From the NCBI GenBank assembly GCA_902499925.1, contig GCA_902499925.1_4130.1: DNA of 64,000 nucleotides. One strand, written 5' to 3'. Positions 45,031 through 52,115 of the stretch are shown here, in pieces (the stretch's first letter is position 1; each line of letters starts with the position of its first letter). Made by a program: the position numbers and the translations under genes. This DNA comes from Escherichia coli. GTDB taxonomy: Bacteria; Pseudomonadota; Gammaproteobacteria; Enterobacterales; Enterobacteriaceae. The notes below the pieces were generated by a model. That model was not told where the DNA came from. It was given only the letters and a program-made list of their open reading frames with translations, and searched no databases.

Positions 45031-46581
45031 TTAAACTATTTCGGTAGCTCCATACTTAAAGTAAATTTCCTTAATCATTTCAAGATTATGGATGCTTGTA
45101 GTTTCAGACCAACCATCCTCCATCAATTCACGTTCAATAATACCTTTCGTATTATGGATTTTAATATTTTCAGTTTGAAACAGTTTCTTACATTCAGTTT
45201 CGGCAGCAATACAATCAACTGGATTTTCAAATTTAAAAGAGCTAATACGTTTTATATCATAATAACATTTTAAGTTTTGTTCATATTCACGACGACCGAG
45301 GATTGTTTCAATTCCATATTTTAGCCCAATATATTCACCTGCATTACATATACCACTAATATATGCAATTTTTTGATTGCGATGTGCCTTACGAGGATTG
45401 CCACATCCACGCAAATGTATAGATGGTGTTTGCCAGAATTCATCACCACTTTCTGGATCAATAATACACACATTAGTACGGGCATCAATATACTCTACTT
45501 TACTGTAATCATATTGTTCATCGTGAATTTCGTTAGCCCTGTTGATAAATTCATCAATTGACATTTTATTTTTCAGGCCAGTTGATATATTAGCACGATC
45601 ATTATTACCACATCCCATCAAATGTGATGATGGTGTTTGCCAGAATTCACCATATACTGGATCTATAATACATACCTTAGTACTGTTGTTTACGTATACG
45701 ACCTTACTATAATCATACAGATTATCATGCACCAAATTGGCCTTCTCGATAAATTCATCAAGTGTTAAGCGTTTACTCTGTGCCGTTTTTTCAAAACCAC
45801 GGATTGGGTTTCCATGACCTTTCCAATGGTAGATTGGTTCTTGCCAGAATTCACCATATACTGGATCTACAATACATACCTTAGTCCATGCACCAGTATA
45901 CTCCACTTTACTGTAGTCATATAAATGACCATGTACTGCACGAGAACGTTCAATAAAAACTTCGTTGGTGAATGTTTTATTTACTGAAGTTCCTATACGC
46001 CCACGTTCCATGTTACCATGCTTGGATTTTAAATGGTCATATGGCGTTTGCCAGAATTCACCATACACTGGATCAATAATGCATACTGGAGTTTTACTAT
46101 TAACATATTCTACGTTTGAATAATCGAACGTATTTCCAAAACGTTCGATAGCTTCAGCTATAAATGTTTCAGTTGTTTTTGATTTAAGTTTTTTACCATT
46201 TTCAATGGCACGTTGTGGGCTACCTGCACCTTTTAAATGGGAGCTGGGTTCTTGCCAGAATTCACCATACACTGGATCAATAATACATACCTTAGTGCTA
46301 TTATTTTTATAAACAACTTTACTATAATCATAGAGGTTGTTATGAACTTTTTCTGCTCGTTCTATAAACGTTTGGGTGGTTAATTTGCCAACACCTGAAC
46401 GATATGGATTCCCCTGACCGCGAATGTGATGTGACGGAGTTTGCCAGAATTCACCATACACCGGATCAATAATGCATACTGGTTCTTTAGCTTTTACATA
46501 CACTGCTTTTTCGTAATTATAGAGATCACCATGTACATTTCGTGCAGCAATTAAAAAAGTTTCTTGGTCGGTAACACGCAT
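45031..46581 (-). CDS. tandem-repeat protein (516 aa): six ~67-aa repeats plus C-terminal GIY-YIG-like region
   Basis: Repeat unit TxxFIERAxxVHxNLYDYSKVxY...KVCIIDPVYGEFWQxPxxHLxGxGNPxR six times; C-terminal AYISGICNAGEYIGLKYG...GRREYE...FKFE resembles GIY-YIG spacing; RBS AGGGATAAAGAAA. Confidence 0.65.
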   Translation of the reverse strand: MRVTDQETFLIAARNVHGDLYNYEKAVYVKAKEPVCIIDPVYGEFWQTPSHHIRGQGNPYRSGVGKLTTQTFIERAEKVHNNLYDYSKVVYKNNSTKVCIIDPVYGEFWQEPSSHLKGAGSPQRAIENGKKLKSKTTETFIAEAIERFGNTFDYSNVEYVNSKTPVCIIDPVYGEFWQTPYDHLKSKHGNMERGRIGTSVNKTFTNEVFIERSRAVHGHLYDYSKVEYTGAWTKVCIVDPVYGEFWQEPIYHWKGHGNPIRGFEKTAQSKRLTLDEFIEKANLVHDNLYDYSKVVYVNNSTKVCIIDPVYGEFWQTPSSHLMGCGNNDRANISTGLKNKMSIDEFINRANEIHDEQYDYSKVEYIDARTNVCIIDPESGDEFWQTPSIHLRGCGNPRKAHRNQKIAYISGICNAGEYIGLKYGIETILGRREYEQNLKCYYDIKRISSFKFENPVDCIAAETECKKLFQTENIKIHNTKGIIERELMEDGWSETTSIHNLEMIKEIYFKYGATEIV

Positions 46582-46614
46582 TTTCTTTATCCCTAGTACG
46601 TTTCATTTCGATAG

Positions 46615-46650
46615 AGCTATAATAGCAAAAGGGCTGACCGAAGTCAACTC
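46615..46650 (-). promoter_or_regulatory. terminator-promoter cassette (degenerate copy)
   Basis: Hairpin GAGTTGAC-ttcg-GTCAGCCC with one mismatch, then TATTAT. Confidence 0.4.
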
Positions 46651-46859
46651 TTTGATATGATAATATAATCATTCCATAAATTATATATATTGTTTTCAAC
46701 ACAATCATCATCGCTTAATTCTATAATTGACGAGATAAGTTCTGATAAGGTTTGTGTGTTCAAAACCGTATCACGATGTCTCAACCACCATTTCATGGTG
46801 AGTGTTCGGATTTTGTACGGATTGTTTGAAAACTTGTATCTAGAAGTGTCAAGTATCAT
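46644..46859 (-). CDS. hypothetical protein (71 aa)
   Basis: Minus ORF directly downstream of denV; ends at the cassette hairpin. Confidence 0.45.
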   Translation of the reverse strand: MILDTSRYKFSNNPYKIRTLTMKWWLRHRDTVLNTQTLSELISSIIELSDDDCVENNIYNLWNDYIIISKS

Positions 46860-46872
46860 TTTTAATCTCTAT

Positions 46873-47310
46873 TTACTTAATCATCTCGGTATAGTACTCA
46901 GGTAACTCAACATCAGTAAATTTATACCACTTAGGCTTCATTTGGAGCTTCTCAATCAAGCGTTCACGAGACATTTTAATCTCTGAATCAGATGGTACAT
47001 AGTCCTGGCAAAACTCCGCAGGGAAGCCGCTAATGTCGTTTAATTCAATGTTTTGAATCTTCATACCACGACGCAAACATTCGTTAACAATTTCAATATG
47101 ACGCTTCTGTAAGTACAATAACTTGTTGTAGAAGAATGTTACATGACCTGAACCTAACAGGTAAGTACTGTTAATTTTGAAATCACGTACACGCTTACGT
47201 GCTTGAACATGTTTTTGTACAGCACCAAATACACGTGGGAGTTCACGATATTCAGCCATCAGATGTTGGTCAGCAAGTTCTTTAACGTGTACTAAGTTAA
47301 TGCGTGTCAT
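46873..47310 (-). CDS. denV: endonuclease V, pyrimidine-dimer DNA glycosylase/AP lyase (145 aa)
   Basis: Colinear with T4 DenV as I recall it: [31 protein letters not shown]...KRVRDFKI...GHVTFFY.KL; RBS GAGGATGAATAC. Confidence 0.85.
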
Positions 47311-47338
47311 GTATTCATCCTCTCGTTTCGATGAAATG

Positions 47339-47376
47339 ATTATAACAAAAAGGGCTGACCGAAGTCAACCCTTTGT
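47339..47376 (-). promoter_or_regulatory. terminator-promoter cassette
   Basis: Minus strand reads GGGTTGAC-ttcg-GTCAGCCC, T-run, TGtTATAAT (extended -10). Confidence 0.55.
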
Positions 47377-47377
47377 T

Positions 47378-47800
47378 TTAATCATCGCCAAAATCATAAT
47401 GGTTCTCGTAAAAACAATCCTGACAGTAGTCACCATCATCACCGAATGCAGTTTCATTACGATATACTTCACTTTCTGGTATTTGTTTACCACAATCATC
47501 ACATGTACATAGTTTCATAAATTCCTCATTAATCAACAATGCACCCAACTTCACAATCTCATACCCATCCAGATAGCCATAGGAACACTCAGGTGTTTCA
47601 TAAGTTGAACCATCATGGATACCTTGGCATTGGCTTTTGGAACGTTCAAGCAATCGTTGCAGTACTGATACGTCATCAAGAACGTAATACAAGTTAGCAT
47701 ATGGGTCCGTCACAATACAGTACTTAAACATGCCAAATGTATCAATCGATTTTTCAACCTTAGCAAATTGTTTCTTTTCTTTATTATACAATGCGTACAT
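47378..47800 (-). CDS. hypothetical protein with C-terminal Cys cluster (141 aa)
   Basis: Track ORF 47378..47866 trimmed to MYALYNKEKK, which starts 1 nt after the stop of 47802..48173; CTCDDCGKQ...YCQDCF. Confidence 0.5.
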   Translation of the reverse strand: MYALYNKEKKQFAKVEKSIDTFGMFKYCIVTDPYANLYYVLDDVSVLQRLLERSKSQCQGIHDGSTYETPECSYGYLDGYEIVKLGALLINEEFMKLCTCDDCGKQIPESEVYRNETAFGDDGDYCQDCFYENHYDFGDD

Positions 47801-47801
47801 A

Positions 47802-48173
47802 TTAATCTCCATAATCAAGTTTAACCAACTTACCACACAGATACCCAAAGTTTTCTGGCTTCGCATCTGAATAGAAGAAGTCAGTACTTAACTCTGAATT
47901 CAATGCTAAAGCACACAACTCCACCCAAAATAAACCCCTATGTTGTACTGGCTTACAACGTTTCTGTACAGTTACTAGTCCAGTACATGATGACCACAAA
48001 GTAGGACAGATACCAGTATCACTACGCTTGGAGTACTGCATCCACGAACGTTCATTGAGGTTAGCTATCATCCCTGTTAAGAATAGCTTCCAACTTTTAA
48101 AGGTTGGAATCTTGATAGCATATTCCCCAATGAGTATGACAGTTCGTGTTGCACCTTTCAAATCTATATTCAT
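47802..48173 (-). CDS. protein kinase-like mini-protein (123 aa)
   Basis: AIK lysine motif, catalytic-loop-like DAKPEN and DYG 16 residues later; C-terminus ends at DYGD, matching 1446..2030. Confidence 0.5.
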   Translation of the reverse strand: MNIDLKGATRTVILIGEYAIKIPTFKSWKLFLTGMIANLNERSWMQYSKRSDTGICPTLWSSCTGLVTVQKRCKPVQHRGLFWVELCALALNSELSTDFFYSDAKPENFGYLCGKLVKLDYGD

Positions 48174-51674: not shown

Positions 51675-51700
51675 GTTTGCCTCCAGTAGTTGATGAAATG

Positions 51701-51740
51701 ATTATAGCAAAAAGGGCCGACCGAAGTCAACCCTTTTCTT
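51701..51740 (-). promoter_or_regulatory. terminator-promoter cassette
   Basis: GGGTTGAC-ttcg-GTCGGCCC, T-run, TATAAT. Confidence 0.55.
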
Positions 51741-52115
51741 TTATATTTTACATGTCATGTCTGGTTTTGGCTTTTCATTCTTTGGCTTTTCAAATGGATT
51801 TGGCTTAGGGGACTTTTTATCTTTATCATCTTTAGCTTTCTTTTTGTTTTCTTTTTTATCCGATTTGTCAGCTTTGTCTTTCTTATCTTTTGAATCTTTG
51901 TCAGCTTTAGATTGTGGTTCCTCACATACAGCAGCTTTTGGCTCTGGCATATCACATGAGTTATCCACAGGTTTAATGAACTCTTTACAGTTGTAGAAGT
52001 ATAAACTTTCATTGGTAGTAAGATTGTGGAATCTAAAGGTATTTTCACCATTAGTATATACTTTCTTAGTACTCTCAATATCATTACACATTGCAACTGT
52101 GTCACCGGAATTCAT
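51741..52115 (-). CDS. protein with Cys-containing N-domain and Lys/Asp-rich tail (124 aa)
   Basis: RBS AGGTATCGAGC; overlaps stop of upstream gene; preferred over alternative-frame ORF 51755..52105. Confidence 0.5.
   Translation of the reverse strand: MNSGDTVAMCNDIESTKKVYTNGENTFRFHNLTTNESLYFYNCKEFIKPVDNSCDMPEPKAAVCEEPQSKADKDSKDKKDKADKSDKKENKKKAKDDKDKKSPKPNPFEKPKNEKPKPDMTCKI

Follow-up and report, generated by a model that had tools for sequence, protein, structure and literature searches.

Homing endonucleases of the T5orf172 class with up to six CapR, DUF723 or DUF4379 domains have been described by Barth et al. 2023 (PMC10448857), who interpreted the repeated domains as 'beads on a string' that give specificity by binding in combination. 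CapR demonstrated sequence-specific DNA binding by EMSA, and this binding was lost when its four cysteines were mutated to serine (PMC8096241). Odn, a T5orf172 nuclease, cut DNA in vitro in a metal-dependent manner, and a Glu-to-Ala mutation killed its activity (PMC8263062).

We analysed a 64,000-nucleotide stretch of DNA (the window), which is that of an Asteriusvirus-type jumbo coliphage. One gene on its minus strand encodes a protein of 516 aa, in which six tandem repeats are followed by a C-terminal domain. An earlier sequence-only reading had described the same layout, and the intact ORF was confirmed at exactly the position it had given. With a probability of roughly 0.7, the gene encodes a free-standing homing-type (or phage-competition) endonuclease of the T5orf172 class. 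Its architecture has already been described, and the gene is thus a new member of a published type. The features of the gene are listed below.

45031..46581, minus strand: complete CDS of 516 aa with an ATG start, taken from the ORF list; six-repeat array plus predicted C-terminal nuclease domain
46381..46569, minus strand: repeat 1 (aa 5-67), a cysteine-less CapR/DUF723-like domain with D-Y-N-R at the ligand positions
46177..46380, minus strand: repeat 2 (aa 68-135), with D-Y-S-R at the ligand positions
45970..46176, minus strand: repeat 3 (aa 136-204), which diverges most from the others and has a one-residue insertion ahead of the second knuckle (KSKHGNMER)
45766..45969, minus strand: repeat 4 (aa 205-272), core CIVDPVYGEFWQ
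45562..45765, minus strand: repeat 5 (aa 273-340), the repeat that was modelled
45382..45561, minus strand: repeat 6 (aa 341 to about 400), core CIIDPESGDEFWQ, with D-S-N-K at the ligand positions
45034..45381, minus strand: predicted T5orf172/MUG113-like nuclease domain of the GIY-YIG superfamily (aa 401-516, ~115 aa), with invariant residues Y407, K421, G423, R431, E461, G490, E493 and T494

The protein was 99.8% identical to an 'endonuclease' of phage WPEC3 and matched PHROG 681, also labelled 'endonuclease', with an E value of 1.7e-63. A near-identical copy has already been annotated as 'endonuclease' in GenBank, and the gene is probably one more selfish phage nuclease. When the whole protein, a single repeat and the C-terminal domain were searched against Pfam, NCBIfam and PDB sequences, only sub-threshold noise was obtained (e.g. 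PNP_phzG_C and Colicin_D), and profiles built from alignments A1 and A3 had no credible match among PDB sequences. The family assignments given here are transitive, made through homologues and structure prediction. A phrog_559 'HNH endonuclease' label was also considered and rejected; it spans the repeat region alone, and the protein showed neither an HNH motif nor an HNH fold.

The six repeats are 63-69 aa long, share 42-65% pairwise protein identity, and carry CI[IV]DP cores at aa 36, 99, 167, 236, 304 and 372. When repeat 5 was compared with the 64-kb window by tblastn, the other five repeats were matched with E values of 1e-18 to 1e-28, and the repeat array is therefore far beyond chance; no paralogue was found elsewhere in the window by the same search. 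Tandem Repeats Finder detected no repeat at the DNA level, because the DNA copies are too diverged (just ~65-70% identical). The core CIIDPVYGEFWQ, which had been called invariant, is exact in four of the six repeats, but it reads CIVDP in repeat 4 and CIIDPESGDEFWQ in repeat 6. Alignment of the repeats, which had been proposed as a way to find hypervariable positions, did reveal a conserved scaffold with ~15 variable positions. The predicted model of repeat 5 consists of helix a1, a b-hairpin and short helices (pLDDT 93.5), and the variable surface positions fall in helix a1, in the 23-28 loop and at positions 44-56. A discrete code of the TALE type was not evident in the array.

By homology, the repeats can be placed in the CapR/DUF723/DUF4379 superfamily of treble-clef zinc fingers. 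Thousands of repeat homologues carry precomputed PF05265, PF14311 or PF21817 labels, including the 99%-identical protein P0001. When 61 aligned repeats were compared with Pfam, DUF723 was matched by nine, DUF4379 by seven and CapR by two, while the window repeats themselves gave no direct Pfam match. The latter are 30-57% identical to zinc-type repeats, with repeat 5 reaching 57%. Thus the sequence-only reading, which could not place the repeat in a family, had met one that is in fact catalogued, and whose architecture with a nuclease has been published (PMC10448857).

The zinc-ligand set is CxxC...CxC as published, and C-P-x-H-G ... G-C-x-x-C within our homologue set. All six window repeats instead carry D, Y (S in repeat 6), N or S, and R (K in repeat 6) at the ligand positions. 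They are homologous to the zinc-type domain, yet not strict zinc fingers. Among ~1000 homologue repeats, 709 showed C-H-C-C and 112 showed the zinc-free D-[YF]-[NHS]-R pattern; all window repeats are of the second type, while C-H-C-C repeats occur for instance in TH47 and P0003. The zinc-free set is spread over many proteins and phage lineages (including P0002, P0021, P0036, P0065 and Turkey3), and the remaining scaffold of its members is as conserved as that of zinc-type repeats. On this comparison, the window repeats are a putative zinc-free version of the domain, in which C-H-C-C was switched together to D-Y-(N/S)-(R/K). These residues presumably form a polar or salt-bridge cluster where the metal site was. 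In the literature cited here on CapR and T5orf172 proteins, we found no mention of a correlated, recurrent zinc-free repeat variant.

Because CapR binding needs its cysteines, a domain without all four ligands might bind DNA differently or not at all. Accordingly, the array could be a decaying or inactive remnant, in which ligand loss marks a degenerating homing endonuclease with both binding and cutting gone. The loss of all four ligand positions in six out of six repeats agrees with such a scenario, as does the Cys-to-Ser form of CapR that no longer bound DNA (PMC8096241); decay of homing endonuclease genes after fixation is general knowledge (cf. PMC13619312). However, the same four substitutions occurring six times are not expected from random decay, and the D-[YF]-[NHS]-R pattern is itself conserved in the 112 repeats noted above, with an otherwise conserved scaffold. 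The confident repeat model, the uninterrupted ORF and the retention of every invariant nuclease residue also argue against decay. We therefore regard an inactive remnant as highly improbable.

The array offers a clean natural case of a zinc-finger-type DNA-binding domain with all four ligands exchanged in a correlated way. The change from C-H-C-C to D-Y-N-R is seen six times within this single protein and recurs in numerous other proteins of phages. One may ask whether such a domain can still bind DNA once zinc is gone, given the essential cysteines of CapR. Natural arrays are numbered in the thousands, contain 1-11 repeats and are combined with at least three nuclease folds. It is conceivable, albeit quite unlikely, that CapR-like repeats of the zinc-free kind fold independently and read DNA without any metal, and that their arrays do so in register (one repeat per fixed number of bp) with specificity from the ~15 variable surface positions. 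If so, these arrays would amount to a naturally occurring modular system for DNA targeting, one that could potentially be re-programmed, in concept like zinc-finger or TALE nucleases.

The GIY-YIG motif comprises a Tyr in b1 ('GIY'), a Tyr/Phe-x-Gly in b2 ('YIG'), an Arg at the beginning of a1, plus a catalytic Glu. The core fold of this superfamily (b1-b2-a1-b3-a2) was found in the C-terminal domain. When 35 members of the family were aligned, Y407 ('AYI'), K421-Y422-G423 ('LKYG'), R431 (the second R of 'GRR'), E461 ('AAETEC') and G490/E493/T494 ('DGWSET') proved to be invariant. The window domain keeps every family-invariant residue, with Y407, K421-Y422-G423, R431, E461 and E493 being invariant or nearly so. 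The C-terminal strings quoted in the sequence-only reading are present, but the residues it chose for the GIY-YIG motif were right only in part: the second motif is 'LKYG' rather than 'EYIG', and the E of 'FKFE' is not invariant among the 35 members. Candidate catalytic residues are Y407, Y422, R431, and E493 and/or E461.

No match of the window domain to T5orf172 (PF10544) or MUG113 (PF13455) was found even at E <= 10. Among its 35 relatives, MUG113 was matched by 13 (best E 2.3e-5) and T5orf172 by 12 (best E 9.3e-5), and hhalign placed KYG on KIG and DGxTET on GNTEL of MUG113/T5orf172-positive domains. As this support comes via relatives, the domain is a divergent relative or subfamily of T5orf172/MUG113 and not a model-level member. 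An exhaustive HMMER search recovered 253 relatives of the domain, and a word-index search with the domain alone gave none, owing to the limits of that method. The proposal that nucleic-acid-recognition repeats are fused to a nuclease-like domain was thus essentially right, in that the repeats are homologous to a DNA binder and the GIY-YIG-superfamily residues are kept; binding and cleavage by the window protein are themselves inferred.

About 19 of the best 120 homologues consist of an array plus an acidic tail, with no recognisable nuclease. This is consistent with a transcription regulator or DNA-binding factor whose nuclease domain is silent. CapR, which is derived from such endonucleases, acts as a repressor via its binding domain (PMC8096241), and a recombination role, as for a junction-resolving enzyme, has been proposed for some T5orf172 proteins in jumbo phages by Iyer et al. 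(PMC7824862). Against regulation, CapR has no nuclease domain, whereas the window protein retains one with all invariant residues. A core function of either kind is also hard to reconcile with the presence of the gene in two of ~57 related genomes and the empty site in close relatives described below. A regulatory or recombination role is therefore very unlikely.

Comparison of the locus with other phages located the gene in a ~2.2-kb insert between conserved genes, as follows.

43839..44612, minus strand: ATPase-like gene, conserved and flanking the slot on the left
44708..46893, no strand assigned: insert of ~2.2 kb with the 71-aa ORF, promoter, 516-aa gene and 65-aa ORF, defined by blastn, annotation and boundary sequences against phage fEgEco12
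44802..44999, minus strand: 65-aa ORF of the insert that follows the nuclease gene; in TH47, its homologue comes directly after endoV
46619..46660, minus strand: the nuclease gene's own promoter/stem-loop cassette, a slightly degraded copy of the element upstream of neighbouring genes
46644..46859, minus strand: 71-aa ORF of the insert, flanked by endoV and the nuclease gene; TH47 has a 73-aa homologue elsewhere in the cassette order
46873..47310, minus strand: endonuclease V (endoV, denV-like, 145 aa), directly upstream of the nuclease gene

Phage fEgEco12 has an empty site, with ~72 bp where the window has ~2.2 kb and with the ATPase and endoV genes adjacent; vB_Ec-M-J is a further relative that lacks the gene. 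The endoV protein has 145 aa in the window, as against 171 aa in phages that lack the insert, its acidic C-terminal tail being exchanged for ...YTEMIK*. The right insert boundary therefore lies inside the 3' end of endoV. Turkey3 carries the same 145-aa form of endoV, adjoining a related nuclease gene. The promoter cassette of the nuclease gene contains the hairpin GTTGAC-TTCG-GTCAGC including a -35 element TTGACT, followed by a 17-nt spacer and TATTAT. A conserved promoter/stem-loop element borders each cassette of the region, and small ORFs have been shuffled from phage to phage. A ~88-bp direct repeat (target-site duplication) flanking the insert was suspected from the overlapping TH47 coordinates of two window segments; it was rejected, as direct comparison gave similarity in the shared promoter/stem-loop element alone, and the overlapping mapping arises because the small-ORF cassettes differ in order.

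At the DNA level, the gene was found in only 2 of ~57 related records (99.5-99.9% identity). The three carriers (the window, WPEC3 and CMSTMSU) are near-identical across the region. In Turkey3, Ecwhy_1 and JNE01, the slot is filled by other nuclease genes, and at least five allelic states of the locus exist among close relatives (an empty site or one of four different nuclease genes). Homology to Turkey3 ends ~13 bp upstream of the nuclease start codon. The C-terminal family recurs in Turkey3, TH47 and Ecwhy_1, where the N-termini fused to it are zinc-free, zinc-type or CapR-type. A single ORF that has expression signals of its own is predicted to combine a nuclease with a separate DNA-binding region, and its presence is sporadic with an empty site between conserved genes, as in free-standing homing genes. 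A slot that is empty or holds interchangeable nuclease genes in close relatives is what is classically seen with selfish homing genes. The exchange boundaries at the endoV 3' end and ~13 bp 5' of the nuclease start support the published idea that nuclease genes mark the boundaries of genetic exchange, and extend it to jumbo coliphages.

For the homing-type endonuclease, we infer DNA binding, cleavage, a target site and homing itself. The gene would be transcribed from its own sigma-70-like promoter/stem-loop cassette. The six CapR/DUF723-like domains would lie side by side on a long, asymmetric DNA target, each adding contacts via its variable surface positions, and the array would position the C-terminal GIY-YIG-superfamily domain to cut nearby DNA. 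The likely target would be the gene-less allele of the locus, near the 3' end of full-length endoV or in the endoV-ATPase intergenic region. As this putative target sequence is replaced in the carrier genome, the carrier would be immune to its own nuclease. During co-infection, the cut would be repaired from the carrier genome, by which the gene and its flanks would be copied. On the other side, the near-identical carriers could share the gene by common descent and not by recent homing. Since cassettes are bounded by promoter/stem-loop elements and small ORFs are shuffled, presence and absence could also arise by recombination at these elements without cleavage.

The nuclease might also have been domesticated or weaponised, such that the array targets competitor DNA (phage, satellite or plasmid) for destruction by the nuclease, as with ICP1 Odn against PLE satellites, and the gene is kept for the benefit of the phage and not through self-copying. 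This nuclease class has been co-opted before (PMC8263062, PMC10448857). The intact ORF with all family-invariant residues and its own early-type promoter fit such a role, and jumbo phages of the group carry several such genes (WPEC3 has them at 5 places, Klebsiella phage KP13-7 at 25). However, a slot that is interchangeable or empty in close relatives follows the selfish homing pattern, and no candidate target element was identified. Weaponisation is hence unlikely as the explanation; it should be pointed out that a homing role does not preclude a weaponised one.

I-TevI and the T4 Seg proteins are classical GIY-YIG homing endonucleases, encoded by free-standing or intron-borne selfish genes of large lytic phages. 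Like the window protein, they tether a GIY-YIG-fold catalytic domain to a separate DNA-binding region. The catalytic domain of I-TevI is N-terminal, i.e. the order is reversed, and its binding region consists of a zinc finger, a minor-groove helix and an HTH, whereas the window protein has a six-fold repeat array. TALE and zinc-finger array nucleases also combine tandem repeats of fixed scaffold and variable positions with a cleavage domain, albeit with no homology. Compared with those arrays, the window repeats are 63-69 aa long, each an independently folding domain, and their variation is distributed over ~15 positions rather than confined to a code of one or two residues.

The DNA-binding domain of CapR, from the PLE satellites of Vibrio cholerae (Netter et al. 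2021, PMC8096241), is homologous to the repeats (PF21817 in window relatives), while the window protein has six zinc-free copies of it plus a nuclease. The chimeric ICP1 Odn (Gp88; Barth et al. 2021, PMC8263062) resembles the window protein in its T5orf172-type C-terminal domain with catalytic Arg and Glu, and in a borrowed DNA-binding module that directs the nuclease. Odn, however, finds its target via a RepA_N domain and not via CapR-like repeats, and its activity is experimental whereas that of the window protein is predicted. Closest are ICP1 gp165 and gp174 and the six-repeat protein of Vibrio phage Helene (PMC10448857), in which an N-terminal array of up to six domains likewise precedes a C-terminal T5orf172-type domain. 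The T5orf172 proteins of that study and the window protein are alike in being encoded by free-standing genes between conserved phage genes, in their sporadic distribution and in their domain shuffling. The window host, in contrast, is a jumbo coliphage and not a vibriophage, and the C-terminal domain belongs to a divergent subfamily with no score against Pfam T5orf172 or MUG113. Furthermore, the window repeats are all without zinc ligands, whereas the three domain families of that paper are zinc fingers.

The gene under study was confirmed at window positions 45031..46581 on the minus strand, where an ATG-started ORF encodes 516 aa. The six tandem repeats proposed by the sequence-only reading were likewise borne out, at aa 5-67, 68-135, 136-204, 205-272, 273-340 and 341-~400, with CI[IV]DP cores at aa 36, 99, 167, 236, 304 and 372 and pairwise protein identities of 42-65%; the core it called invariant is exact in four repeats and inexact in the other two. 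When repeat 5 was searched by tblastn against the whole 64-kb window, the other five were recovered (E 1e-18 to 1e-28) and no match fell outside the repeats of this gene. Thus, the repeats are real and confined to the gene within the window. Tandem Repeats Finder reported no repeat at the gene because the DNA copies are only ~65-70% identical, short near-identical stretches encoding the core.

Scans of Pfam, NCBIfam and PDB sequences with the whole protein or one repeat gave nothing significant. PHROGs placed the protein in 'endonuclease' families (phrog_681, E 1.7e-63; phrog_559 and phrog_4605 over the repeats), and a homologue search returned 7,928 of 8,000 scored candidates at E <= 1e-5, most covering ~76% of the query, namely the repeat region. 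Precomputed Pfam labels on the homologues were PF05265 (DUF723), PF14311 (DUF4379, described as a 'probable treble clef zinc finger') and PF21817 (CapR homology domain). From the fetched homologues, which carry 1-11 repeats each (commonest 6-8), 904 single repeats were excised; among 61 diverse aligned repeats DUF723 matched nine, DUF4379 seven and CapR two, and window repeat 5 reached 57% identity to zinc-type repeats. Because of these labels, matches and identities, the repeat, left without a known family at first reading, is assigned by homology to the catalogued CapR / DUF723 / DUF4379 superfamily. CapR binds DNA sequence-specifically by EMSA and needs four cysteines for binding (PMC8096241).

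The ligand positions in the homologue set read C-P-x-H-G ... G-C-x-x-C. Across ~1000 repeats, 709 carried C-H-C-C and 112 carried D-[YF]-[NHS]-R at the same four positions, intermediates being fewer. All six window repeats are of the zinc-free type (D-Y-N/S-R; D-S-N-K in repeat 6), so that, judged by sequence, they share homology with the CapR superfamily and lack its defining zinc ligand set. The D-[YF]-[NHS]-R set recurs in unrelated proteins (homologues P0002, P0021, P0036 and P0065, and the Turkey3 phage gene), and the remaining scaffold of zinc-free repeats is conserved as strongly as that of zinc-type repeats. It seems that the metal site has been exchanged in a stable and correlated way and has not decayed; a decaying remnant is a very improbable reading of the gene. 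These domains have been described as zinc fingers (PMC10448857, PMC8096241), and no mention of a cysteine-less lineage of CapR, DUF723 or DUF4379 domains was found in either paper. A repeat alignment, proposed at first reading to find hypervariable positions, located several with entropy > 2.5 bits, in helix a1 (3, 4, 7, 10, 11), in the 23-28 loop and at 44-56. The variation thus takes the form of many variable sites on a fixed scaffold, with no discrete two-residue code. That the array is a modular, metal-independent, re-programmable DNA-reading system is an unlikely reading.

The C-terminal domain itself gave no match in a Pfam scan. When 1.84 billion representatives were searched exhaustively with phmmer, 253 relatives emerged at E <= 1e-3, each carrying the domain at its C-terminus. 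An alignment of 35 relatives contained eight invariant positions (Y407, K421, G423, R431, E461, G490, E493 and T494), all kept in the 516-aa protein. Thirteen of these relatives matched MUG113 (best E 2.3e-5) and 12 matched T5orf172 (best E 9.3e-5), both families of the GIY-YIG clan. Profile-profile comparison with the 'YKIGIT'-type tails of sibling arrays (E 1.9e-5), of which 7/7 match MUG113 and 4/7 T5orf172, paired KYG with KIG, AE-EC with EEQ and DGxTET with GNTEL. In addition, the T5orf172 domain of ICP1 Odn is a proven nuclease, which cleaves in vitro and is abolished by E180A (PMC8263062). The GIY-YIG-like call was therefore right at the superfamily level, though not in detail: KYG, not EYIG, takes the place of 'YIG', and in the 35 relatives the conserved glutamates are E461 and E493 instead of that of FKFE. 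On predicted fold and motif residues the protein belongs to the GIY-YIG superfamily, while its relation to the Pfam T5orf172/MUG113 models is transitive only. A nuclease directed against competitors, as Odn is, would share this domain type and is an unlikely, though not negligible, alternative.

In the 120 best homologues the array sits at the N-terminus, most often preceded by no more than 5 aa. By motif, ~54 tails were PD-(D/E)xK-like, 11 T5orf172/MUG113-like, three window-type and ~19 acidic with no recognisable nuclease, the rest being unclassified. Of ten representative tails scanned with Pfam, two gave canonical GIY-YIG (PF01541) and three gave weak matches of a restriction-endonuclease-like kind. 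The ~19 acidic cases (e.g. P0004, P0008, P0010, P0014, P0023) join a zinc-type array to a ~160-aa tail with the motif …YKFNLLEEFExEY…IEHMLTPEDRxYI…, in which neither a recognisable nuclease domain nor a credible Pfam match was seen, and may represent a non-nuclease use of the array. A regulator or recombination factor whose nuclease domain is silent or differently used remains improbable for the 516-aa protein. Places matching the repeat protein numbered 25 in Klebsiella phage KP13-7 (OP617745.1), 11-12 in some Vibrio phages and five in WPEC3; some phage genomes are therefore heavily colonised by the family.

The 12 kb around the gene was 85-99% identical to Asteriusvirus-type jumbo coliphages (121Q/PBECO4-like, 350-385 kb). 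At the DNA level the gene was found only in WPEC3 (99.9%), whose annotated 'endonuclease' has 99.8% protein identity, and in CMSTMSU (99.5%), an unverified record whose annotation fragments the gene. Since the window and these two phages are near-identical throughout the gene region, the gene may have come to all three by common descent.

In phage fEgEco12 an ATPase-like gene directly adjoins the endonuclease V (endoV) gene, and ~72 bp occupy the place of ~2.2 kb in the window:

44708-46893, ~2.2-kb insert holding a 71-aa ORF, a promoter, the 516-aa gene and a 65-aa ORF

The right boundary of the insert falls within the endoV 3' end. EndoV (46873-47310, minus strand) has 145 aa in the window, ending ...YTEMIK, and 145 aa in Turkey3; in fEgEco12, Ecwhy_1 and TH47 it is longer, at 171 aa, and ends in an acidic tail (…VKDMQDVSSNIESSTDMFDEIEEQIKDEMNNY), and the CDS in JNE01 has the length of the 171-aa form (516 bp). 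Because the short form accompanies zinc-free repeat nuclease genes (window, Turkey3), the replaced 3' end may hold their target site.

The same slot shows five states in close relatives: window-type; Turkey3-type, with five zinc-free repeats and the window-type C-terminal family (42% identical, homology to the window ending ~13 bp before the start codon of the nuclease gene); Ecwhy_1-type, a 447-aa protein with a CapR match (E 1.4e-6) and the same C-terminal family; JNE01-type, an unrelated 474-aa protein with a PD-(D/E)xK-like C-terminus; and empty. In TH47 a zinc-type array with the window-type C-terminal family lies on the opposite side of endoV, at the position of an HNH endonuclease in fEgEco12. 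Free-standing homing endonuclease genes would be expected to show such polymorphism, which also matches the 'nuclease genes at boundaries of exchange' of Barth et al. (PMC10448857). The endoV surroundings (window 44700-47530) are a nuclease-gene hot spot. Adjoining endoV is a 162-aa ORF (47378-47866, minus strand), which may be N-terminally extended or fused, since relatives annotate only an ~89-aa gene there, with homology from 47529; the fEgEco12 HNH gene is inserted at the junction of its homologue and endoV.

The 516-aa gene has its own copy (TTGACT, 17 nt, TATTAT) of a conserved ~45-nt intergenic promoter/stem-loop element, AAAGGGTTGACTTCGGTCAGCCCTTTTTGCTATAATCATTTCATC:

~44641-44686, minus strand, copy of the element
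~46619-46660, minus strand, copy of the element
~47339-47374, minus strand, copy of the element
~51690-51741, minus strand, copy of the element

It combines a terminator-like GC-rich hairpin and T-run, a -35 TTGAC in the hairpin 5' arm, and an extended -10 (TGnTATAAT) 17-18 nt after it. The element precedes several genes including the nuclease gene, recurs in related phages, and resembles the 'promoter-early stem-loop' mobile regulatory cassettes of T4-type phages. Because every cassette of the region is bounded by it, and the 65-aa and 71/73-aa ORFs are ordered differently in TH47, recombination at these elements could be an alternative route for gene movement. Elsewhere in the window, ~14 ORFs in a row, of 358-449 aa (23391-41295, plus strand), resemble a set of tandem paralogues, and the WPEC3 annotation of the matching region includes a 'regulator of chromosome condensation'. 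Three neighbouring ORFs of 112, 115 and 112 aa (42751-43771, minus strand) are alike in their hydrophobic N-terminal halves and appear to be small-membrane-protein genes duplicated in tandem; at this place the annotations of Ecwhy_1 and fEgEco12 list a longer series of such ~105-125-aa genes.

The architecture, predicted fold, residue conservation and locus polymorphism are observed here. We consider the 516-aa protein to be most likely a site-specific DNA endonuclease, with a probability of about 0.7. The six-domain array would bind a long DNA target and the T5orf172-type domain would cut nearby; the gene would then act as a homing or marker-exclusion element directed, close to the 3' end of endoV, at the allele that lacks it. 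Binding, cutting, target and homing alike are inferred.

The repeat-array plus T5orf172 architecture has already been published (Barth et al. 2023, PMC10448857), and our census of the 120 best homologues agrees with it. In that study, CapR, DUF723 or DUF4379 domains occur in 87% of T5orf172 homing endonuclease genes, many in multiple copies (six in Vibrio phage Helene), which the authors read as 'beads on a string' that specify the target by binding it jointly, with recombination shuffling binding and nuclease modules. The closest described counterparts of the 516-aa protein are these T5orf172 homing endonucleases with repeated CapR/DUF723/DUF4379 domains.
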